This document shows, in pieces, positions 1 to 20,936 of a DNA stretch of 32,374 nt. The notes beneath the pieces are model-generated. The model did no database searches. It saw only the letters and a program-made list of their open reading frames with translations, and was not told the origin of the DNA. Source of the DNA: a virus (Duplodnaviria; Caudoviricetes); the IMG/VR virus record IMGVR_UViG_3300011335_000450, positions 1 to 32,374 of that record; one strand, written 5' to 3'. The number at the start of each line of letters is the position of its first letter. The stretch's first letter is position 1. A program made the translations under genes and the position numbers.

Positions 1-120
<120 letters not shown>

Positions 121-154
121 GCGGTTACAAATACCCACACTGACAGCAGGGTCT

Positions 155-461
155 ATATACCCCCGGGGGTATATTGTATACTTATAAGTTAACAAATTGA
201 GTGCTTTGTATACTTATACGTAAAAATATACAGAAATTGCAAAAACTTGCTGTCTGTGGGGGCCCCCCGCCCGGGGTGTCGGATGGGACCCTAAATGGGG
301 TGTCGCTAAAAAACAACGCCCCCTCATACCCTATGGGGTATCGCGCATACCCTACGGGGTATAGTACCGGCTTGGTCGCATACCCTACTGGGTATAGTAG
401 GCACCGAGGCGCATACCCTACTGGGTATAGTAGGCACCGAGGCGCATACCCTACTGGGTAT
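155..461. promoter_or_regulatory. Six ATACCC-N4-GGGTAT palindromes (CsoR/RcnR/FrmR-operator-like); five lie in a tandem array
   Basis: Copies at 157-172 (inside a perfect 20-bp palindrome 155-174), 326-341, 347-362, 380-395, 413-428 and 446-461; array spacing 21, 33, 33, 33 bp. Confidence 0.6.
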
Positions 462-477
462 AGTATGCGGGCCAAGC

Positions 478-624
478 TGGCATGGATCTTGCATGGCTAG
501 CAAGTATCGTGCCAACGTGGCATGGCACGCATTGTGCTATTAGCAAGAAGCATGCCAACGTGGCATGGCACGCATTGTGCTATTAGCAAGAAGCATGCCA
601 ACGTGGCATGGCACGTATCTTGCT
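478..624. promoter_or_regulatory. Array of seven sigma-54 (RpoN) -24/-12 boxes in alternating orientation within a 43-bp tandem repeat
   Basis: TGGCAYG-N4-KTGCW with GG-N10-GC spacing at 478-493(+), 499-514(-), 523-538(+), 542-557(-), 566-581(+), 585-600(-), 609-624(+). Confidence 0.75.
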
Positions 625-645
625 AGTGTGGCACGCAGGCTAAAT

Positions 646-670
646 GCAAATGAGAATGATTCGTATTCGC
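646..670. promoter_or_regulatory. Fur-box-like site
   Basis: GCAAATGAGAATGATTCGTATTCGC; core 649-667 matches AATGATAAT-N-ATTATCATT at 14 of 18 positions. Confidence 0.5.
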
Positions 671-738
671 AATGCGCACGCGAGGCCTAGGGGCCTGTCT
701 AGCGTGATTGCACTAATATAGTATGTCACGCGATTGCC

Positions 739-754
739 CTAGACGATCGTCTAG
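739..754. promoter_or_regulatory. Perfect 16-bp palindrome, possible operator
   Basis: CTAGACGATCGTCTAG, just upstream of the first promoter-like motif. Confidence 0.4.
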
Positions 755-822
755 TGCTGATCTATAACCACCCCCAATTGACCATGATAGTGTAAGTAAA
801 CCAAACCCCAAAGGAAACCACC

Positions 823-1143
823 ATGCAAACCCTCACACCATCACGCCACACCGGCGACCGCGACAACATGTTCACAATCAACCTGCCACGCATGCGTGGT
901 ATCTACAGCGACGCAAGCTTGTACCAAGGTTATAAGAAAAACGACGACGGCATTTACTGGGCCCTGCAACATTCGTCTTGTTTACAGGGCCATTACAGCG
1001 AGGCAGACATTGCCCATCGCGACCGCCTGCACAACATGAAACCCTTGGAAAATGGCGACATTGTGCTGATCAATGGCGAGCAGTACAAGACGCGCATTCT
1101 AGGCAATTTCAGTGACTGCGCCATTTTCGACAAGATCGATTGA
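823..1143 (+). CDS. Early hypothetical protein, 106 aa
   Basis: AAGGA RBS; follows motif copy 1; stop codon is the first triplet of the hairpin cassette. Confidence 0.8.
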   Translation: MQTLTPSRHTGDRDNMFTINLPRMRGIYSDASLYQGYKKNDDGIYWALQHSSCLQGHYSEADIAHRDRLHNMKPLENGDIVLINGEQYKTRILGNFSDCAIFDKID

Positions 1144-1228
1144 TGCGTGATGGCCTGCGTGCAGGCCATTGCAGATCAACCACCCCCAGTTGACCATAGT
1201 AGTATCACCAACCAAACAGGAGGCCATC

Positions 1229-1495
1229 ATGGCAATCGTTACCCTTTTCAAAGCAACATACAAACCCGCAACAAACACACGCGCGGCCAAGATCATGGTC
1301 CAACGTATGGACCTAAACGACAAGGCAGAGGCCATGCCGCTGGACTACAGCGCGAAAAACCTTACCCGCGCGGCCATCGTGGCATACGCTAAAAAACGCG
1401 GCCCACAATGGTGGTTGCCCACCGACGAGGACGACCTACAGTTTGTAGGAGACGAGAAAAACAGCAACGTCCAGTACTACATCACAAGCAAATAA
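1229..1495 (+). CDS. Early hypothetical protein, 88 aa (start revised)
   Basis: AGGAGG RBS before ATG 1229; the upstream extension in the ORF track is repeat sequence. Confidence 0.8.
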   Translation: MAIVTLFKATYKPATNTRAAKIMVQRMDLNDKAEAMPLDYSAKNLTRAAIVAYAKKRGPQWWLPTDEDDLQFVGDEKNSNVQYYITSK

Positions 1496-1552
1496 TGCGT
1501 GATGGCCTGCATGCAGGCCATTGCAGATTATTTTCAACAACAGGAGCACACC

Positions 1553-2296
1553 ATGAAAAAACCCACCGGCTACGTTATTTACCGCGGCCCATCGTTACTT
1601 GATGGCACACCAATTGTGGCCATTGCCCTGCTTGGTTCAAGCAATCGCAAGACAGGCAACATGGTGCAGACCTATATTTTGCGCGACGACATGCGCCCTA
1701 CACTGGCCGTCCAAACTGGCGCGGACAGCGCGATCTGTGGCAATTGCAAACACCGGCCATTTTTAGGTGGCGCGTGTTACGTGGTCGTGGCCCAAGGTCC
1801 TACTGTTGTCTTCAAGACAATGCAGGCCGGCAAATACCCTGACGCTACACCGGCCGACGTGGGCACCATGGTGGCCGGTCGCATGGTGCGTCTCGGCACC
1901 TATGGGGACCCTGCCGCGGTACCGGCCAACGTATGGCAGGCCCTGACAGCGCAGGCCGTCGGCCGTACAGGGTACACACACCAATGGGCCAACGAGGCCC
2001 TGCCAATGGACCACCGCGCAGACATTGCCCAGTTGACCATGGCCAGTGTAGACACAGTGGAAGAGGCCCAACAGGCCCGCGCCAGTGGCCTGCGTTATTT
2101 CCGGATCCGCTTGGCCACCGAGGCCCTGCAAGAGCGCGAATTTGTGTGCCCTGCTAGCGAAGAGGCCGGTAAGCGCAAACTGTGTGACACGTGTGGCGCG
2201 TGCAATGGCACGACCAAATCCACTGGCGCAAGCCCTGTGATTATTGTGCATGGCAACAAGGCCCGCAGATTCACAGAACAGCGCGCGACAGCATGA
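1553..2296 (+). CDS. Cys-rich phage protein, GP88/DUF7227-like, possibly Fe-S/radical-SAM-related
   Basis: AGGAG RBS; motifs NRKTG, CGNCKHR, CYV, RLGTYGDP, GYTHQW, CPAS, CDTCGAC; family recalled from motifs. Confidence 0.6.
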   Translation: MKKPTGYVIYRGPSLLDGTPIVAIALLGSSNRKTGNMVQTYILRDDMRPTLAVQTGADSAICGNCKHRPFLGGACYVVVAQGPTVVFKTMQAGKYPDATPADVGTMVAGRMVRLGTYGDPAAVPANVWQALTAQAVGRTGYTHQWANEALPMDHRADIAQLTMASVDTVEEAQQARASGLRYFRIRLATEALQEREFVCPASEEAGKRKLCDTCGACNGTTKSTGASPVIIVHGNKARRFTEQRATA

Positions 2297-2387
2297 TTGA
2301 TGCGTGATGGCCTGCGTGCAGGCCATTGCAGATCAACCACCCCCAGTTGACCATAGTAGTATCAGCAACCAAACAGGAGAAAACACC

Positions 2388-2600
2388 ATGGAAAAATTAT
2401 ACGCATTTCAACGTCGCATGCATTCAACGTGCCACTATTACCCGCGTGAGTATGGCGTGGCCATTAACTGGAATGCGCAGACGCGCAAGTGGGAAACCCT
2501 GACAATCAAAATGGACAGCAATCACAAGGCAGAATTAGAGGCCCTGTTGCAAGGCACCGACGGCCACATTACCCGCATCGACGGATTTTTCACCAACTAA
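2388..2600 (+). CDS. Early hypothetical protein, 70 aa
   Basis: AGGAG RBS after the cassette. Confidence 0.75.
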   Translation: MEKLYAFQRRMHSTCHYYPREYGVAINWNAQTRKWETLTIKMDSNHKAELEALLQGTDGHITRIDGFFTN

Positions 2601-2610
2601 GGAGCAGACC

Positions 2611-2991
2611 ATGATCAAGTTCAAAAAGACAGTGCCGGACGGCCGGCATAACACAGAGGCGCGTGATTGCACAGTGCGCGCATTGGCCCATGTGGCCGAC
2701 ATGCCATACAGTGAAGCGCACGCGCTCATGGCCTCATTCGGCCGTAAGAATCGACGTGGCGTGCCACGTGGTGACGTGGTCAGGGCCTACGCAAGCAAGG
2801 GCCTGACATACATCAAGCGCAACGACAGGCCCACACTGGCCCAGTTCATGCGCGAAGATGGCGCCAAGCATGAGCGCCTAGTGATCAACAAAACCGGCCA
2901 CGTGTTTGCGCTGATCAACGGCACACAGTTGGACATGGCCAAGTGCGGACCACGCACGCGAGTGCAAGGGTATTACGTGCCGGCAAAATGA
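2611..2991 (+). CDS. Putative papain-fold (C39-like) Cys peptidase
   Basis: AAGGAG RBS; DCTVRALA (Cys at a helix start) and GHVFAL..NG...D (His/Asp). Confidence 0.5.
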   Translation: MIKFKKTVPDGRHNTEARDCTVRALAHVADMPYSEAHALMASFGRKNRRGVPRGDVVRAYASKGLTYIKRNDRPTLAQFMREDGAKHERLVINKTGHVFALINGTQLDMAKCGPRTRVQGYYVPAK

Positions 2992-3068
2992 TGCGTGATG
3001 GCCTGCGTGCAGGCCATTGCAGATCAACCACCCCCAATTGACCATAGTAGTATCAACAGGAGAAAACA

Positions 3069-3257
3069 ATGAAGACAATCACAATCACACAAAAACAGTG
3101 GTCCAACCTTAACGTTGGCCTGCTGTATGAAATGGCCAAGTTCTTGGCAGAAGAGCACAGCGAGGACCTGACACGCGAAGAGCGCACAGACACCATCAAC
3201 ATGCTCAACGACGCAATACACGAGTACAACAAGATCAAAGAGGCATTCAAAGCATGA
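3069..3257 (+). CDS. Early hypothetical protein, 62 aa
   Basis: AGGAG RBS after the cassette. Confidence 0.75.
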   Translation: MKTITITQKQWSNLNVGLLYEMAKFLAEEHSEDLTREERTDTINMLNDAIHEYNKIKEAFKA

Positions 3258-3349
3258 AATACCTTAGAGAGTTTATCGAGGCCCTGATACTGGCCGTCCT
3301 GATCGGTGGCCCGCTGTTTTATTATTTTCTTTACGTAATGAAACCATGA
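3254..3349 (+). CDS. 31-aa single-TM peptide (not in ORF track)
   Basis: MKYLREFIEALILAVLIGGPLFYYFLYVMKP; ATGA overlaps at both ends. Confidence 0.65.
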   Translation: MKYLREFIEALILAVLIGGPLFYYFLYVMKP

Positions 3350-3444
3350 ACAACTGGCCATTCCCCCCATTCCCAAACCCACTAGACAAGGGCGCCAACG
3401 TGCCCCGATTCAACCCCGATAACTTCGAGGACGCGCCCTTTTAA
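3346..3444 (+). CDS. 32-aa Pro-rich peptide with SSB-tail-like end (not in ORF track)
   Basis: MNNWPFPPFPNPLDKGANVPRFNPDNFEDAPF; ATGA-coupled; stop fused to motif copy 5. Confidence 0.65.
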   Translation: MNNWPFPPFPNPLDKGANVPRFNPDNFEDAPF

Positions 3445-3492
3445 CCACCCCCAATTGACCATAGTAGTATCAACAACACAGGAGCACACACC

Positions 3493-3771
3493 ATGAAAAC
3501 AGCACGACCATACACCGACGACGTCGGAGGTTTTATCTACTACAAAAAGATGGCCGAGCAGGCCTCAAAGGTGGCCCACAGTAGCGCGCATGGTGTGTGC
3601 GTGACTGTGGATTACTTTAACGGGGACTACAAATTCGTTATATGGACACTGGCCCCCAAGGCCACCAATGGCATTACCAAACACGAATTGTTCGCAGAGG
3701 TCACAGACCAAGATCGATTAAACGCACACGTTATCGGTTTCACACAAAACATCGAGGAGTTGACAAAATGA
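3493..3771 (+). CDS. Early hypothetical protein, 92 aa
   Basis: AGGAG RBS after motif copy 5. Confidence 0.75.
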   Translation: MKTARPYTDDVGGFIYYKKMAEQASKVAHSSAHGVCVTVDYFNGDYKFVIWTLAPKATNGITKHELFAEVTDQDRLNAHVIGFTQNIEELTK

Positions 3772-3962
3772 GAAAATTTCCACTGTACATCATTGACAGA
3801 GCAGGCCAGTTCACCACGCAGGAATTCCCGTCGTACGAGGAGCAATGCGCGGCCGCGGACAAGTGGGAGGCCGGTGGCCACGAGACCTACTTCAATTACC
3901 TAAACGCAGTGATGCGTTACGACGCATTCAAACGATTCAACCAAGCACAAGGAGCAAAATAA
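3768..3962 (+). CDS. Hypothetical protein, 64 aa (start revised)
   Basis: GAGGAG RBS; ATGA overlap. Confidence 0.7.
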   Translation: MRKFPLYIIDRAGQFTTQEFPSYEEQCAAADKWEAGGHETYFNYLNAVMRYDAFKRFNQAQGAK

Positions 3963-4288
3963 TGAACCAATTTCAAAGCGCATACGAGCAGGGCAAAATG
4001 GACAAGTGGGACCGGATCACACAAACCATGGACCAAGTGCGTGCCGAGCACGACGCAGGCAAACACGTGGTGGTGTTCGAGTCCTTGTCCTACTGCCCCT
4101 ACACCGACGCGCCCATGGGCACCATGCCCCACATCGTCAAGGCCTGCGACACACGCGACGAGGCCGAGGGCCTGATCAATGACTACTTTGAAGACCACAT
4201 CGACAACGACGTGGTGGACGTTTACATTTACCCAAAGTACAAAGCGCCTAAACAGGCAACAACAGAATTTGACGACATTCCTTTTTAA
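3962..4288 (+). CDS. Acidic 108-aa protein ending in an SSB C-terminal motif (EFDDIPF)
   Basis: AAGGAG RBS; TAATG coupling; C-terminus resembles the bacterial SSB tail DFDDDIPF. Confidence 0.75.
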   Translation: MNQFQSAYEQGKMDKWDRITQTMDQVRAEHDAGKHVVVFESLSYCPYTDAPMGTMPHIVKACDTRDEAEGLINDYFEDHIDNDVVDVYIYPKYKAPKQATTEFDDIPF

Positions 4289-4337
4289 CCACCCCCAATT
4301 GACCATAGTATTACAACCAACCAAACAGGAGAAAACC

Positions 4338-4688
4338 ATGGATAAGACATACTGGACAGGCCAAGGCCGTTACCAAGCGCAGGCCGACGCGTTAGAAAAG
4401 CTTCTGCCAATTTTTGGCGTGGTGGAAGACGCCAAGGGCGCCAACAAGCACCTAGACACATTTAGGCGCGCAGTTAACTGCTACTACGACGTGTACAACA
4501 ACGGCCTGTGCAATCGGGCACGTGAGTTCAGCACACTGTTTAAAATTGCAGGCGTGGCCAAAGAGATCAATTCGCGTCGTGCCAACGGCATGCTGTCTAT
4601 GGACACGCAGGAGCGTATTGAGGACAAGATGGGCCTGTTCATACTGGCCGCGTTTCAGGAACAGTTTGTAGAGGAGACAACAGAATGA
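4338..4688 (+). CDS. Early hypothetical protein, 116 aa (start revised)
   Basis: AGGAG RBS after motif copy 6. Confidence 0.75.
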   Translation: MDKTYWTGQGRYQAQADALEKLLPIFGVVEDAKGANKHLDTFRRAVNCYYDVYNNGLCNRAREFSTLFKIAGVAKEINSRRANGMLSMDTQERIEDKMGLFILAAFQEQFVEETTE

Positions 4689-5212
4689 TCACAGTAGACA
4701 AATTCAACGTGCGCATTTTGCGCAAGGGTGACAAGTATGGACGTGAGTTCTGCCTGACACACGATGAGGACAAGCCAGTGGTCGAGTTCTACGACACCCG
4801 CTACCCACACACCGAGTATGGCCAGTTTGTGACACGTTACTATGTGGAGACAATCCTAGGCACCGACCGGTACGGCCGAGGCACCGGTGGCCTGATGTTG
4901 GATGGTGGCGTGCCGTCATGGACAGTAGGCGCCAAGGACATGGACACAGTGCGCGCATACCTGCAGGCCGAGACCGGCCTCAAGCGCAAGGTCGATGTGT
5001 GGTTTGGCATGATGACACATGGCCGGTTTGGCGTGACAGAGCACGACATTGAGCCCGCTGTGATCATCTATTCAATCGACGAGAAGGCCACCATGGACCC
5101 CGACGAGATCGAGGACTACATGGCCCTGCACCATTACGACAGTTACCTTGTGCCCTCCGAGTTCGTGGGGTACGTTACGTATTCATCGGACTACATTAGG
5201 AACATGCCCTAA
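4685..5212 (+). CDS. Hypothetical protein, 175 aa
   Basis: GAGGAG RBS; ATGA overlap; stop fused to motif copy 7. Confidence 0.75.
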   Translation: MITVDKFNVRILRKGDKYGREFCLTHDEDKPVVEFYDTRYPHTEYGQFVTRYYVETILGTDRYGRGTGGLMLDGGVPSWTVGAKDMDTVRAYLQAETGLKRKVDVWFGMMTHGRFGVTEHDIEPAVIIYSIDEKATMDPDEIEDYMALHHYDSYLVPSEFVGYVTYSSDYIRNMP

Positions 5213-5251
5213 CCACCCCCAGTTGACCATTACAGTACAAAGGAGCAAACC

Positions 5252-5506
5252 ATGAAAAAGTTACAGAAATTTATCAAAGCAGAAAACGACTGGCGTAAGT
5301 TGTTCGGCAACCCTGCCCTGACAATCGACACACCGGAGGGCAGGCAACACGTGGCAGAGTTGATCGACAATCAACTAAGCCCCGAGAACCTGTACTGTGA
5401 TGGCGAGATCAGCCACACAGAGGCGCAGATGAAGTACCGCATGCTATCAGGCGCGGCCAAAGACCTGATGAAAATTGACCCCAACGTAGTTATTTATGAA
5501 ATTTAA
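5252..5506 (+). CDS. Phage hypothetical protein, 84 aa
   Basis: AAGGAG RBS; LSPENLYCDGE motif. Confidence 0.75.
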   Translation: MKKLQKFIKAENDWRKLFGNPALTIDTPEGRQHVAELIDNQLSPENLYCDGEISHTEAQMKYRMLSGAAKDLMKIDPNVVIYEI

Positions 5507-5516
5507 GGAGAAAACC

Positions 5517-5783
5517 ATGGACAGCAAAGAACTAGCATCTATCGTGGCCGAATCAAACGGCCGTTTTGTCAGCGTCGTGTTCGTTAAGAAAGACGGCACA
5601 GAGCGCACCATGCTCTGCCGATTAGGCGTCACAAAGTACCTGAAAGGTGGCACGTCCAAGTTAGACGCGGACAAGTACCTGACAGTGTTCGACGTTAAAA
5701 AGGAAGAGTACCGCGCGATCAACCGCGAGACCATCCTATCGGTCAAGTTGGCAGGCAACACATACACACAGGAGGCCACATGA
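5517..5783 (+). CDS. WYL-like/SH3-fold protein (DUF2693-like)
   Basis: AAGGAG RBS; VxFVKKDGTERTM...VFDVKKEEYRAI pattern. Confidence 0.6.
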   Translation: MDSKELASIVAESNGRFVSVVFVKKDGTERTMLCRLGVTKYLKGGTSKLDADKYLTVFDVKKEEYRAINRETILSVKLAGNTYTQEAT

Positions 5784-5998
5784 TCGAGTACAAGATCGAC
5801 CGAGCCTGTGACGGGCAGGACGTGTTCTTTGACGGCAAGAAGGTGGGGTGGCTGTCGTTCGGTGACCTGCGTAGTCTGTATGAAGACAGGCGCCCTGTGA
5901 CCATGTTGATCATGGACAAGGGCACCAAGCACCACGACAGCATGGCCTCGGCCAAAGAGTACATCGAGGCAGTTTACAAACAACAGGAGACAGCATGA
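5780..5998 (+). CDS. Hypothetical protein, 72 aa
   Basis: AGGAGG RBS; ATGA overlap. Confidence 0.7.
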   Translation: MIEYKIDRACDGQDVFFDGKKVGWLSFGDLRSLYEDRRPVTMLIMDKGTKHHDSMASAKEYIEAVYKQQETA

Positions 5999-6489
5999 TC
6001 ACCCTAGCAACTCCAAAAGAACACCTAGCGTTTTTACTGGCCGAAGACAAGGCCTGTTTTGAGGAGGGCGACTGGGACCGCCTAGACAGAATACGTTTGG
6101 CCATAGACGACACACGCGAACAAATTAAAAAAGAGGATTCAATTAACATGAACAAATTATCAGTAAACCAACCACGTCCTAATTTGGTGGACGTGATCGT
6201 GGGTGAGGACAACGGGTGGGTGGCGGTGGCCATGTCCATGGGCATGCTTCGCGTGGAGGTCTACGACGCGAAAGGCGACGTGCTGAACGCGTTCAAAAAG
6301 GAATGGCCGGACGAGAAGAAACGTTTTAAGGTCCGCGCGTCGTACAGTGCTATGTGTGAGACCGAGGTCGAGGCACATAACATCGACGAGGCCTACGAGA
6401 TCGCTAAAAAATTGGACGGTGGTGTGTTCGACACACACTGCGACCCTGACGACTGGCACATTGAAGACGTATACGAGGTAACAAAATGA
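5995..6489 (+). CDS. Hypothetical protein, 164 aa
   Basis: AGGAG RBS; ATGA overlap. Confidence 0.7.
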   Translation: MITLATPKEHLAFLLAEDKACFEEGDWDRLDRIRLAIDDTREQIKKEDSINMNKLSVNQPRPNLVDVIVGEDNGWVAVAMSMGMLRVEVYDAKGDVLNAFKKEWPDEKKRFKVRASYSAMCETEVEAHNIDEAYEIAKKLDGGVFDTHCDPDDWHIEDVYEVTK

Positions 6490-6647
6490 ACACAAGACTT
6501 TTAAAACACGTGCGCACACTGTTTGTGCACGAATTCGTGCCCGCGAGCACAGCAAGGCACAACATACGCCAGTGGGTAAAATCTGTGCGCATGTTGGGTG
6601 ATAAGCATTTACTGGCCATCAAGGTGCCAAAGAAGGAGACAGCATGA
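6486..6647 (+). CDS. 53-aa basic protein (not in ORF track)
   Basis: MNTRLLKHVRTLF...RQWVKSVRMLGDKHLLA; GAGG RBS; ATGA overlaps at both ends. Confidence 0.7.
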   Translation: MNTRLLKHVRTLFVHEFVPASTARHNIRQWVKSVRMLGDKHLLAIKVPKKETA

Positions 6648-6868
6648 AAGCATTAGTATCTATATTAAAACGCGCCCAATCGTTGACGTCCACGATTAGC
6701 AACGACGAGGAAATAACACGCGAAGTAATAGACCTAGCGACAGAGTTAGACGCAGAATTAAATGAGTTGATAGGTTTGTTTGACCCAAACTGGATGTCAT
6801 ACGAGCAAGGGTATGAGTACGACCCCAAGCTTGTTGCCATTGCCCTAAACCTAGGAGAAAATAAATGA
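6644..6868 (+). CDS. Hypothetical protein, 74 aa
   Basis: AAGGAG RBS; ATGA coupling. Confidence 0.7.
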   Translation: MKALVSILKRAQSLTSTISNDEEITREVIDLATELDAELNELIGLFDPNWMSYEQGYEYDPKLVAIALNLGENK

Positions 6869-7083
6869 GATCATTGGAAGACTACGACATTCGCGACGTG
6901 GCCGAGTACCTGAGGGACTGGGGCTACGTGGTGACGGCACCGGCAGACGCGGGTGACGGCCTGTGGGTCAGCCAAGAGCAGTTGGCAGACATTGAGCATT
7001 TACTGGTGTGTGGCCAAAAAGAGGCCGCACAAAACGACCTGTTTGAACTATTAGGGAAAACCCTTAACCGGAGCGTGGCATGA
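6865..7083 (+). CDS. Hypothetical protein, 72 aa
   Basis: AGGAG RBS; ATGA coupling. Confidence 0.7.
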   Translation: MRSLEDYDIRDVAEYLRDWGYVVTAPADAGDGLWVSQEQLADIEHLLVCGQKEAAQNDLFELLGKTLNRSVA

Positions 7084-7298
7084 TTAAACCAATTACCCGA
7101 TTCACACTGGAAGACCAAATTATGGAGTGTTGGGGTGTCGTGGACGACATAGATATGGTCTACAGCAACGAGGCCCTGTACCAAGACGAGGACCGCATGA
7201 TGAACGTCCTACTAGGTATGCAGGAATTGTATCGACTGCGTTTTGAGCGCCTGTTCCAAACGTTTGAGCATTTAGTCCATGAAGGGAAGATCACATGA
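7080..7298 (+). CDS. Hypothetical protein, 72 aa
   Basis: GGAG RBS; ATGA coupling. Confidence 0.7.
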   Translation: MIKPITRFTLEDQIMECWGVVDDIDMVYSNEALYQDEDRMMNVLLGMQELYRLRFERLFQTFEHLVHEGKIT

Positions 7299-7450
7299 TC
7301 AACATACACGTGGCGTATAACGCTGTGGCAGAGCAGTGGGTGGTTTGGGCAGGGTCAGGCCGTCAGTACTTCGGAAAATCGCGCCTAGAGGCCATAGAGG
7401 CCTTTAAGGCCAGTATTCCACCGGATACACCGGTCAGGGTGGTGTACTGA
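7295..7450 (+). CDS. 51-aa hypothetical protein (not in ORF track)
   Basis: MINIHVAYNAVAEQWVVWAG...; ATGA coupling. Confidence 0.6.
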   Translation: MINIHVAYNAVAEQWVVWAGSGRQYFGKSRLEAIEAFKASIPPDTPVRVVY

Positions 7451-7546
7451 TGGCATTGGCAGGCCTTTTTGGTGTACTGGCCCTGTGGGCGGCCAAACAA
7501 CCGCGGTGGGCGGTGGTTTTACTGGCCCTGATCTGCTACTTTGATT

Positions 7547-7548
<2 letters not shown>
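7450..7548 (+). CDS. 32-aa hydrophobic peptide (not in ORF track)
   Basis: MALAGLFGVLALWAAKQPRWAVVLLALICYFD; TGATG coupling. Confidence 0.5.
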
Positions 7549-7718
<170 letters not shown>

Positions 7719-7733
7719 AAACTGGAGCAAACC

Positions 7734-7931
7734 ATGGCACGACAAGACGTAAAAAAGACCGGATGGCCAGTAGGGCTACTGCAGGATGACGACAATAGAC
7801 TGAGCAAGTGGTTTGCAAGCAGGCCCGACGCGAGGCACGTGGTAAGACGCAACATAAAGGAACACAATGAAAAGATGGACCAACTTAGACAAGGCGATCA
7901 TAGGGACAACCATGACGTACCAAGAGGGTGA
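7734..7931 (+). CDS. Hypothetical protein, 65 aa
   Basis: GGAG RBS; tail overlaps the next gene. Confidence 0.65.
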   Translation: MARQDVKKTGWPVGLLQDDDNRLSKWFASRPDARHVVRRNIKEHNEKMDQLRQGDHRDNHDVPRG

Positions 7932-8109
7932 GCGAGTGGCTGTGTTTGTGTACAGTGGCAATGAAATCATAAGCATACTTATGGAGCGGGACGGCATGGA
8001 GTGGGACGAGGCCATGGATTTCATTGACTTCAACATAGATAACACGTATATTGGCAAAGACACCCCACTGCTAGTGTGGCCAATAATCGACGAGGAGTAC
8101 GACCTATGA
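7867..8109 (+). CDS. Acidic phage protein, 80 aa
   Basis: AAGGA RBS; DGM..DEA.DFIDFN..TP pattern. Confidence 0.7.
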   Translation: MKRWTNLDKAIIGTTMTYQEGERVAVFVYSGNEIISILMERDGMEWDEAMDFIDFNIDNTYIGKDTPLLVWPIIDEEYDL

Positions 8110-8718: not shown

Positions 8719-9103
8719 CATTACGCAGATGTTGCAAATAGTCAACGTGGACCCACGCACCATTGAGATGGTGCAGTTCGCGTACGACCAAGGGGTCAAG
8801 CACCCCGACCCCCAACAACCCAAGTGCAACCCGCACTCAAAGGCACCACACGGGTTTATGAGAGAGGCAAGCCACCAAGCGGCCCGTTACGTGTGCGAGT
8901 GTGAGTCATGGGACCCGTACGAGGCCGGCAGAGAGGACGGGGTGCAGGCCATGCTCAAGTACGAGAAAGACAACTACATACCCCTCACAGCCTCAGAGAT
9001 CGTGGACTGCGCCACAGCGGTGTACCAGTGCGACATGAACGACTTGAGCGATAACACGATTAAGTTTGCGCGCCACATTGAGCGACTAACATTGGAACGA
9101 TAA
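8705..9103 (+). CDS. Hypothetical protein, 132 aa
   Basis: AAGGAG RBS; CNPH..APHGF...CEC motif. Confidence 0.7.
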   Translation: MNRDDITQMLQIVNVDPRTIEMVQFAYDQGVKHPDPQQPKCNPHSKAPHGFMREASHQAARYVCECESWDPYEAGREDGVQAMLKYEKDNYIPLTASEIVDCATAVYQCDMNDLSDNTIKFARHIERLTLER

Positions 9104-9627
9104 TGAGACGACAGTTACTGACAGCCGAACAAGAGATCGAACTACACCACCGGATCGTGCAGGGTGACGAGGAGGCCCACGACCAGTTGGTGGAGGCCAA
9201 CATGGGCCTTGTGGTGTACATCGTGCAGAAGTTGCCGCAGTGGGACATGGCGGGGAGCATGACACGCGACGACCTACTGCAGGAGGGCTACATGGCCCTG
9301 ATGAAGGCCGCGCACAGGTGGAAACCGCAGGGAAGGTTTGCAAGCTACGCGCGCACACTGATCAAGAGCCAAGTGCTCAGAGCGGTAGAGAACAAGGCCC
9401 TACTTATTCACGTGCCGGTGGCGGTGCAGGAGGACCTACGCAAGATCAAACGCGTGGAGACCGAGTTGGCCCAAGTGCTGAACAGGGACGCCACACCCAA
9501 AGAGGTGGCCAAGTTGACGGGCCTGTCAGAGAGCAGGGTTCGCGACAGACTGGTGGTGAGTCAGAGACAACCGGTGTCACTGGACGCGTACAAGAAAGAC
9601 CAAATAACGGAAGAAGATTATGATTGA
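9103..9627 (+). CDS. Sigma-70-family factor, regions 1.2-3 only (no region 4)
   Basis: LLTAEQEIEL (1.2), LVEANMGLVV (2.1), DLLQEGYMALMKA (2.2), RFASYA (2.3), IHVPV...RDATPKEVAK...PVSLD (3). Confidence 0.85.
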   Translation: MRRQLLTAEQEIELHHRIVQGDEEAHDQLVEANMGLVVYIVQKLPQWDMAGSMTRDDLLQEGYMALMKAAHRWKPQGRFASYARTLIKSQVLRAVENKALLIHVPVAVQEDLRKIKRVETELAQVLNRDATPKEVAKLTGLSESRVRDRLVVSQRQPVSLDAYKKDQITEEDYD

Positions 9628-11153: not shown

Positions 11154-11486
11154 ATGACAGACAACGAGCGCATGCAATACGAAGCCAACCTAAAGAAGTT
11201 ACCACCTGAGAAGGCGGCACAATGGACCGAGGAGGTCAGGGAGGCGTGGTTACGTGTGCGACGGGCGAGAAAGGTGTGGCGCGCAACGCGCACACCCGCC
11301 ACACGTTGTCTAGGGTCAGTCAAAGAGGACGGGCGCCTGACGCCCCTCTTCATTCCAAACACAGAGTACGTGCGCTACGAAGAAGCGTGGATCGACTACT
11401 GTGAAAACTACCAACCCAAATACATTTTTGAAGAGCGCGCACGTGCGGGCGAAGATGACGACGACTACGATTGGAGCAAGGCATGA
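11154..11486 (+). CDS. Hypothetical protein, 110 aa
   Basis: AAGGAG RBS. Confidence 0.7.
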   Translation: MTDNERMQYEANLKKLPPEKAAQWTEEVREAWLRVRRARKVWRATRTPATRCLGSVKEDGRLTPLFIPNTEYVRYEEAWIDYCENYQPKYIFEERARAGEDDDDYDWSKA

Positions 11487-12637
11487 TTTATATTTTTAGT
11501 CCTGAAGAGTGTGCTTCCATAGTTTCAGCTTTTGACGGCACAGAGAACAAAGTAAACGAAGACTCCCAAAACTATTACAAAAATAGTGAGGGACTGTATA
11601 ACCTGCCCGCCACACTGGCTTACGCGGACCGCATAACCAAACAGGTTCAAAAATACTATCCAAAAGCAACATTTGTAAATAGCTACACGCGTGTTTACAA
11701 AAGAGGAAGCTATCTTAAAATTCACACCGACCGCGAAGGTTTAGACATAACGTTGAGCGTGTGTGTAGAAGATAAAAACAACCTTGAATGGCCTTTGTAT
11801 ATCAGTGCAAAAAAGTACGAAAACAAAGAGTGGGATAGGTCAACAGACGACACAGAATTTAAAAATCAAGCCTTTGGAATTGTGATTCCTGTAGGTCAGG
11901 GCGCGATGATGGAAGGAAGGAAACACCCACACTGGCGTGAAGAGTTGTTGTGTGGGGAATCGCAAAGATCAATTTATGTGTTTTACCATTGGTCGGTGGA
12001 AACCAAAGCAAAAGACAAATCAATCACATTGTTAAAATCTACAGGTCCTGACGCGACTGTGTTCGGTAATTTTTTAGACCGGAACGAATGTCAAGAAATT
12101 ATAAACCACGCAAGCGCCAAGTTAGTTGCGTCGCAAGTGGTGGACGATAAAAACGGAGACTGGGTTTCACACGAGGGACGCACGAGTTCAGGCATGCACT
12201 TTTTAATTGGCGAAACGCCATTGATTCAAAAAATTGAACAAAGAATTTCAGACCTGACCGGCATCCCTGTAGAAAACGGCGAAGGCATACAAGTTCTTCG
12301 TTACGAAAAAGGGCAACAGTACAAACCACATTTTGATTATTTTCCGGAAGATAAAGAAGGATCAGCAACACACATTAAAAATGGAGGCCAACGAATTGCA
12401 ACATTTTTAATGTACCTGAACACGCCCGAAAGTGGGGGCGCAACTATTTTTCCTGACGCGGGGTTAGAAGTTCATGCACGAGAGGGCAACGCTTTATTGT
12501 TTAGATACAACACACCAACAGAAGACACCAAAACGCTTCATGGTGGCACACCAGTAGAAGCCGGTGTTAAATGGGTGGCCACAAAATGGTTACGTGTTAA
12601 TGAGTTTAAGGAGCAAGCAAATGAAAGCAATACTTGA
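11483..12637 (+). CDS. Tandem 2OG-Fe(II) dioxygenase; C-terminal domain is prolyl-4-hydroxylase-like
   Basis: Domain 1: HTD...HWR. Domain 2: RTSSG, QVLRY...HFD, RIATFLMYLN, GGATIFP, TLHGG.PV..G.KW. GGAG RBS before ATG 11483. Confidence 0.88.
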   Translation: MIYIFSPEECASIVSAFDGTENKVNEDSQNYYKNSEGLYNLPATLAYADRITKQVQKYYPKATFVNSYTRVYKRGSYLKIHTDREGLDITLSVCVEDKNNLEWPLYISAKKYENKEWDRSTDDTEFKNQAFGIVIPVGQGAMMEGRKHPHWREELLCGESQRSIYVFYHWSVETKAKDKSITLLKSTGPDATVFGNFLDRNECQEIINHASAKLVASQVVDDKNGDWVSHEGRTSSGMHFLIGETPLIQKIEQRISDLTGIPVENGEGIQVLRYEKGQQYKPHFDYFPEDKEGSATHIKNGGQRIATFLMYLNTPESGGATIFPDAGLEVHAREGNALLFRYNTPTEDTKTLHGGTPVEAGVKWVATKWLRVNEFKEQANESNT

Positions 12638-20910: not shown

Positions 20911-20936
20911 GGGTTGTAGCTTATAAGCTACAACCC
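20911..20936. repeat. Perfect 26-bp palindrome after the SSB gene
   Basis: GGGTTGTAGCTTATAAGCTACAACCC. Confidence 0.8.

Follow-up and report, generated by a model that had tools for sequence, protein, structure and literature searches.

The leader of the window (the whole stretch of 32,374 nt analysed here, a linear IMG/VR record, IMGVR_UViG_3300011335_000450, approximately 50% complete) appears to be a non-coding modular array in which sigma-54 boxes are combined with putative CsoR-family operator sequences and a weak Fur-like box. In our view it is clearly more likely that these arrays are real host-protein sites than that any single function proposed for them is correct. Among the functions, we give nearly an even chance to the leader being a likely short terminal repeat that would load host proteins onto the entering DNA ends. 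In this mechanism pre-existing host DNA-binding proteins would occupy the ends during cell entry, before any viral protein, and would act structurally, as a cap or an anchor, and not as a gene switch, so that the end may be shielded from exonucleases or end sensors, or held while the rest of the DNA is injected.

Layout of the leader and its variation among relatives

The left boundary element, at which the contig breaks, consists of a poly-A tract and, after it, 9-bp CCCTGAACA repeats (7..102, + strand); the same boundary was kept in the relatives, with a terminase-side gene to its left. It is followed by a perfect 20-bp palindrome with an ATAC-N8-GTAT core of the CsoR-type geometry (155..174), kept in 20/20 relatives; none of the csoR genes in the bacterial loci searched had this exact 20-mer next to it. 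Three anchors consisting of A-tracts and G/C-tracts and ending in GTGTCGCTAAAAAACAAC (241..317, + strand) were also present in 20/20 relatives, the last of them having itself served as the search pattern for relatives. Further to the right are located five ATACCCTAC-NNN-GTAYAGTA units 21–33 bp apart (326..465, + strand), seven sigma-54 (-24/-12) boxes on alternating strands (478..623), a degenerate Fur-like box (646..670) and an invariant right anchor, GCGCACGCGAG (674..684, + strand; 15/15 relatives). A poorly conserved segment (702..754) then precedes the first CCACCCCCARTTGACCAT element (768..785, + strand; 14/15 relatives), which stands ahead of the early genes, and the first early ORF (823..1143, + strand), encoding 106 aa without family assignment.

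The preliminary description had recognized here a gene-free leader of about 600 bp, and this was borne out: the longest stop-free frames across the leaders of the relatives varied from 50 to 158 codons, the indels consisted of whole units, and the structured-RNA search gave no Rfam match within window 1–8000. The motifs it listed were present as well, including six ATACCC-N4-GGGTAT sites (157, 326, 347, 380, 413 and 446) and seven sigma-54 boxes, five of them strict (478+, 500-, 543-, 586- and 609+) and two relaxed (523+ and 566+). Strict sigma-54 and ATACCC motifs were absent elsewhere in the window, and in the comparison with shuffled controls none of 3000 dinucleotide shuffles of 150–760 reached the observed count of either (shuffle means of 0.005 strict sigma-54 sites and 0.0007 ATACCC sites). 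The claim that many unrelated motif families follow one another was thus correct in that the motifs exist and are far in excess of chance; most of the copies, however, belong to a pair of tandem arrays, one of 33 bp x 3.7 (343–465) and one of 43 bp x 2.7 (498–615), and are therefore not independent. Likewise, the ATACCC-N4-GGGTAT palindrome regarded as the unit does exist, but the conserved unit is the longer ATACCCTAC-NNN-GTAYAGTA. Three other listed elements were found in the window but proved unconserved and probably lie outside the system: the GCGTGA...TCACGC pair (702–731; 0/15 relatives), the 16-bp palindrome (739–754; exact in 3/15 and within two changes in 8/15) and two TTGTATACTTATA copies starting at 174 and 206 (174..218, + strand), which were kept in 2/20 relatives and are strain-specific.

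Relatives were collected by a single-anchor scan, which yielded 18 viral loci, 17 of them genuine; metagenome loci, some of them redundant, were added. The remaining locus, L454, was unrelated on inspection and was dropped. Between the anchors the relatives contained 0–6 ATACCC units, 5–9 sigma-54 boxes and 0–2 Fur-like boxes within a span of 267–425 bp; two of them (L451 and L453) had no CsoR units and nine sigma-54 boxes, against 2–6 units and 5–7 boxes in the others. The modules therefore expand, shrink or replace one another between fixed anchors in the 17 relatives, which is the swapping of arrays among related phages that had been envisaged earlier. The invariant anchors are better candidates for phage-protein sites than the variable modules, and those at 241..317 are a candidate phage packaging or end signal.

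The + strand genes of the window encode a primase, helicase, exonuclease, ssDNA-binding protein, ribonucleotide reductase, DNA polymerase and a sigma-like protein, and the virion proteins are encoded on the - strand from the right side of the window. In two relatives (G001 and G003) the poly-A tract has to its left a 290-aa ORF and then the terminase large subunit (TerL), read leftwards, indicating that the leader occupies the divergent gap between the packaging and early genes; it lay between the terminase and the early genes in those relatives that reach far enough. The 290-aa ORF before TerL (L204:7197-8069, G001) had no Pfam match and, being thinly covered or absent in some runs, seems to vary among strains. 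The CCACCCCCARTTGACCAT element, likely a phage promoter, occurs seven times (768, 1180, 2337, 3028, 3445, 4289 and 5213), and a sigma-70-family phage protein (window 9103–9627) is a candidate for its reader. This protein matched regions 1.2, 2 and 3 without a region 4 match and belongs to a family of 173–177 aa with about 30 homologues.

Several other features were observed in the same record. Two inverted poly-A/T plus CCCTGAACA copies (window 7–120 and 7547–7721) bracket the whole early region; in four relatives such copies are 7.5–9.6 kb apart, with the early region in the same orientation, and they might be origin-like or invertible. Four copies (1143, 1495, 2300 and 2991) of a 34-bp element, the 20-bp core of which is palindromic, lie directly 3' of early genes, and three of these copies are followed by the promoter-like element. 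A perfect 26-bp palindrome (window 20911–20936) separates the ssDNA-binding protein and ribonucleotide reductase genes, and a 2OG-Fe(II) oxygenase fused to a ferrochelatase-annotated domain is encoded in a low-GC stretch (window 11471–12637) absent from one run. At least half of the sampled words of the window were detected in 18 public runs, labeled mostly as freshwater, drinking water, aquaculture and river.

Assignment of the motifs to host regulators

The regulator identities suggested in the preliminary description fared unequally, with support from the spacing control for sigma-54 and from bacterial loci for the CsoR family, and a weak case for Fur. The five strict and two relaxed boxes satisfied the consensus TGGCAC-N5-TTGC with the fixed GG-N10-GC spacing. 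The divergent strict pair was estimated to occur in ~500 IMG/VR stretches (based on 125 fetched stretches with 16 of the 64 parts scanned), against 2 stretches when each spacer was made one base longer, indicating that the exact sigma-54 spacing is selected. Three boxes on the same strand were estimated for ~330 viral stretches as compared to 46 in 596 Gb of prokaryote genomes, numbers that do not convert into a per-base ratio because the viral base total is not given. The 244 fetched viral triple-box loci formed 121 sequence clusters with freely varying flanks, in which the free positions were T-leaning before the box and A/T-leaning after it, and the same lean is seen in the published sigma-54 consensus (PMC12316311). 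A terminase match was present in 15 of 43 unrelated sigma-54 array loci (44 long-flank representatives minus the window family's own cluster; one match weak) and in 4/24 loci of a comparison set with shorter loci; the difference was not significant (p = 0.16), which makes the proximity to terminase suggestive only.

Cultured phages gave little in this respect: none of 14 annotated phage records with TerL, polymerase or Fur-like similarity, among them the nearest matches of TerL and of the polymerase, had a sigma-54 array (two single boxes were found), two T5-like records had no strict box, and in cultured phages neither the leader nor the sigma-54 array gave BLAST matches other than short Fur-like ones, which belonged to T5-like and other enterobacterial phages. 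Compared to bacterial sigma-54 promoters (PMC12316311), the consensus and spacing are alike, but the leader contains seven boxes in overlapping range on both strands within 150 bp, of which one at most is able to serve the downstream genes, and no activator site was identified. Two unrelated sigma-54 arrays (L072 and L125) adjoined a gene for an anti-restriction protein (phrog_7245), and long arrays of sigma-54 boxes were also present in bacterial assemblies (L221 and L228, with 4 and 14 triple matches).

The ATACCC unit was defined from 70 copies across the phage family, in which ATACCCTAC-NNN-GTAYAGTA was invariant and can be read as two TAC-N8-GTA half-site pairs with a 5-bp offset. The operator cores of CsoR, FrmR and CstR are 17 bp long (PMC5057107; PMC5146963; 10.1101/2021.07.25.453692) while the core in the window is 16 bp, and because of this difference both HipB and CsoR-family candidates were tested. 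Upstream of CsoR-family genes the 16-bp class was found in 3/23 cases and the 17-bp class in 5/23. The exact 16-mer occurred in 64 out of 401 Gammaproteobacteria genomes (one flagged unpublished), as compared to 6/8 genomes with one sulfur-linked CsoR-family clade (p = 0.0003). In bacteria it precedes genes for SoxC, sulfide:quinone reductase, cytochrome bd, a sulfur transporter, MBL-fold and OsmC proteins, and also unrelated genes. In Gammaproteobacteria with one CsoR-family clade (loci L383, L401 and L486-L493) the 16-bp operator class marks a sulfur/respiration regulon.

The full 20-bp unit was found in 118 metagenome loci, 8 of which belonged to the phage family of the window and were removed. 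Of the remaining 110 non-phage loci, 32 contained a CsoR-family gene, and HipB-like genes were absent from all of them. The association depended on the center of the unit: with NGG, as in the window, a CsoR-family gene was present in 31/51 loci, against 1/59 with other centers and 1/56 in control loci. The 32 CsoR-family proteins fell into 12 groups at 60% identity, hence these neighbors do not represent one lineage. Over 20 bp, the copy at 347 did not differ from sites in 18 bacterial loci carrying a CsoR-family gene, nor did the copies at 380, 413 and 446 differ from a site in one such locus. At the level of sequence, the assignment of the ATACCC unit to the CsoR-family operator class holds. 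The other neighbors in these loci were mixed, with TauE in one and many unrelated or unnamed, so that sulfur is the best lead and not a proven signal; where the neighbors can be named, they link the CsoR-type site with sulfur and not with copper.

The doubled TAC..TAC/GTA..GTA layout resembles the consensus of TTHA1953, a sox regulator, whose operator has a 4-base center (PMC10318464), one base longer than that of the phage unit. An ATAC/GTAT inverted repeat around a G/C tract is shared with the CsoR/RcnR operators of Bradyrhizobium CsoR, E. coli FrmR, S. mitis CstR and Thermus TTHA1953, but, unlike the known operators of this kind, the phage unit is arrayed and unattached to a regulated operon. 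The 19-bp TACNNTAC-N3-GTANNGTA pattern alone was unenriched in Gammaproteobacteria (10/401 genomes, below the reversed control). In viral stretches paired sites of the 17-bp type (N5) numbered 19 as compared to 54 with N4; in unrelated viral loci many of the paired ATACCC sites resembled internal promoters, 4/24 were near a terminase, and no CsoR or HTH gene was found beside them among 36 ORFs. Five partial phage records contained no CsoR, sigma-54 DNA-binding or HTH_3 gene, although with records 34–50% complete a phage-encoded binder may be unseen.

The Fur-like box at 646..670 matched 13 of 19 positions of the E. coli Fur consensus, a score reached by 8.2% of shuffles, and by itself is therefore no better than chance. 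Its palindromic form was nevertheless kept within two changes in 12/15 relatives, which had better boxes than the window. The variant of this box found in the phage family was present in 4/121 bacterial genomes and in none of the controls, and in one of the four it preceded a TonB-dependent receptor. It also occurs in tandem in the terminal regions of two T5-like phages (L188:1500-2020 and L189:190-360), where the Fur-like boxes adjoin DnaA boxes. The accessible text of the T5 preprint mentions neither sigma-54 nor Fur (10.1101/866236). The Fur identity of the box in the window is thus a weak assignment.

Probable terminal position of the leader

The location at a genome end is suggested by contig depth, which was derived from assembled contigs without read ends and is not equal to copy number, with the left limit out of view. 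The contig covering approximately 65–521 had a depth of 243.7, 207.9 and 120.6 in runs X3, X5 and X7, respectively, against 81.8, 94.5 and 58.2 for the early genes and 112.1, 94.8 and 65.6 for the terminase side, i.e., 2.1–3.0 times the early genes and 1.8–2.2 times the terminase side. In X7 the depth went down to 61.8 from about position 700. There was no step in X9 (11.1 vs 13.2; ratio 0.84) and X4 was noisy, which leaves the step in 3/5 runs. Strains sharing the leader could inflate its contig depth, but the minor strains listed in X5 and X7, with depths of 5–9, were too low for a doubling. It is likely from these contig depths that the leader lies within a short terminal repeat of the virion DNA. 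A long terminal repeat of 7.5 kb of the T5 type was rejected, since there was no step at 7.6 kb and the depth at 1.2–7.5 kb equaled that beyond 8 kb in X3, X5 and X7. The best cultured match of TerL was Caulobacter phage RW (42.8%), in the record of which about 2.9 kb of genes are repeated at both ends.

Possible roles and relation to known systems

Position and interchangeability favor DNA-end loading among the three functions first offered, i.e., a decoy for host regulators, a protein-loaded ratchet or shield for the first-injected DNA and a sensor of the metal and nitrogen state. The sites are bidirectional, clear of any detected sigma-70 promoter, exchangeable and placed where the DNA would enter first, so a role in which the presence of a bound protein outweighs its identity would fit them. 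Sigma-54 holoenzyme appears suited to capping an end, because without an activator it forms a stable closed complex (PMC12316311). The location at the end could also reflect merely where non-coding DNA is tolerated. Loading, titration, sensing and the other roles are not mutually exclusive.

Somewhat unlikely, although the foremost of the alternatives, is a decoy, in which hundreds of array copies produced by replication would titrate sigma-54 holoenzyme, a sulfur-linked CsoR-type repressor and Fur, so that sigma-54 stress responses are muted and the genes for sulfur oxidation, sulfide detoxification and iron uptake are derepressed without a phage protein. The high copy number and the consensus quality of the sites agree with this, a terminal repeat would double the site dose, and the genes behind the bacterial 16-bp site, if derepressed, could raise the energy supply. 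A decoy, however, needs no fixed place, yet the arrays are found at one place in the phage family, and the replacement of CsoR units by sigma-54 boxes at the same spot in L451 and L453 is unexpected for a specific regulon target.

The sensor, in which bound host regulators would gate early transcription according to the nitrogen, sulfur or iron state, is improbable and the least supported of the three functions first offered. It has a precedent in the CtrA sites within terminal repeats of Alphaproteobacteria phages, documented by EMSA and reporter data (PMC9437464), and the 609+ box, the last before the early genes, is a perfect consensus and faces them. The first promoter-like element (768), however, lies 100–440 bp downstream of the sites and is not overlapped by them, six further such elements would serve the early region on their own, and close relatives differ in their set of regulators. 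No + strand sigma-70 promoter was detected within window 1–1300, the first promoter-like element being 300 bp away from the CsoR-type units; together with boxes facing both ways, this agrees with the earlier remark that the sites are too many for one promoter.

We consider it still less probable that the repeats serve phage proteins, whether the terminase or factors of replication or transcription, or that they arose by neutral tandem expansion and resemble host motifs by chance. They do adjoin the packaging genes and consist largely of tandem duplicates, and half of the genome is unseen. On the other hand, all 121 unrelated clusters have a fixed -24/-12 geometry although the distance from box to box is free to vary, the drop from ~500 to 2 followed a change of a single base in spacing, and the unit has exact counterparts among bacterial operator sequences.

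Finally, a HipB-type (XRE) antitoxin operator, phage copies of which would stabilize HipB and keep the HipA toxin inactive, since operator DNA slows the Lon degradation of HipB (PMC3376134), is the least probable reading: a tandem pair upstream of hipB-hipA in one genome includes a 16-mer identical to that in the window, the sites fit an 18-bp TATCC-N8-GGATA-like palindrome, and a matrix from 31 hipBA operators put the six sites in the top 8 of 32,357 positions, but their scores were at the low end of those of the training sites, the hipBA operators are spaced by 27–28 bp as compared to 21–33 bp in the leader, and CsoR-family genes were present in 32 of the 110 bacterial full-unit loci, against none with a HipB-like gene.

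Host-regulator sites in phage terminal repeats are already known, being published for CtrA and proposed for DnaA in T5. The CtrA sites of phiCbk-like and vB_BsubS-Delta phages are situated in direct terminal repeats and gap regions (PMC9437464), and the leader shares with them the concentration of host-regulator sites in terminal repeats or non-coding gaps, the turnover among close relatives and the independent origin in unrelated phages. The CtrA phages, however, use one regulator at promoters that it activates or represses, in contrast to the sites for two or three regulators in the leader, arranged in dense, bidirectional, exchangeable tandem arrays overlapping no detected promoter. The injection-stop region of T5 has eight DnaA boxes, for which docking of the host protein during injection was proposed (10.1101/866236). 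Both phages have non-coding, repeat-rich DNA at an end (here a likely one) and inverted elements flanking the early region, but T5 possesses a 10-kb repeat and two-step injection (10.1101/866236), while the window has no depth step at 7.6 kb. In a similar way, the Spo0A/Spo0J sites of Bacillus phage phi29 and the LexA sites in temperate phages (both cited in PMC9437464) recruit host DNA-binding proteins to phage DNA, as is predicted for the leader; those, however, are promoter-linked or segregation sites with known switches and not tandem end arrays. A search of mostly open-access main texts yielded no publication that describes sigma-54 or CsoR arrays at phage ends. New at the leader are the composite array, the natural exchange of one regulator for another at a single position, and a palindrome whose sequence would place it in a 16-bp CsoR-family operator class.

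A wider generalization is tentative and seems to us less secure than the end loading at this leader: many unrelated lytic phages may have evolved a gene-free, plug-and-play end cap made of arrays for tightly binding host regulators (sigma-54 holoenzyme, CsoR-type, Fur), which would protect or pull the incoming end before phage expression and maybe act later as a sponge rewiring the sulfur, nitrogen and iron regulons. By what means the naked end of a linear phage DNA persists and gets into the cell ahead of phage protein synthesis is a question described as open for T5 (10.1101/866236), and it becomes testable with single-gene host mutants because the leader names candidate host proteins and exact sites and its variants swap the regulators. 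The match to the 16-bp operator hints that the host carries such a CsoR-type repressor, and this operator class with its sulfur-linked regulon would be useful for the annotation of bacterial regulons. If titration is the true role, host metabolism would be reprogrammed by DNA alone, which surveys based on genes would miss.
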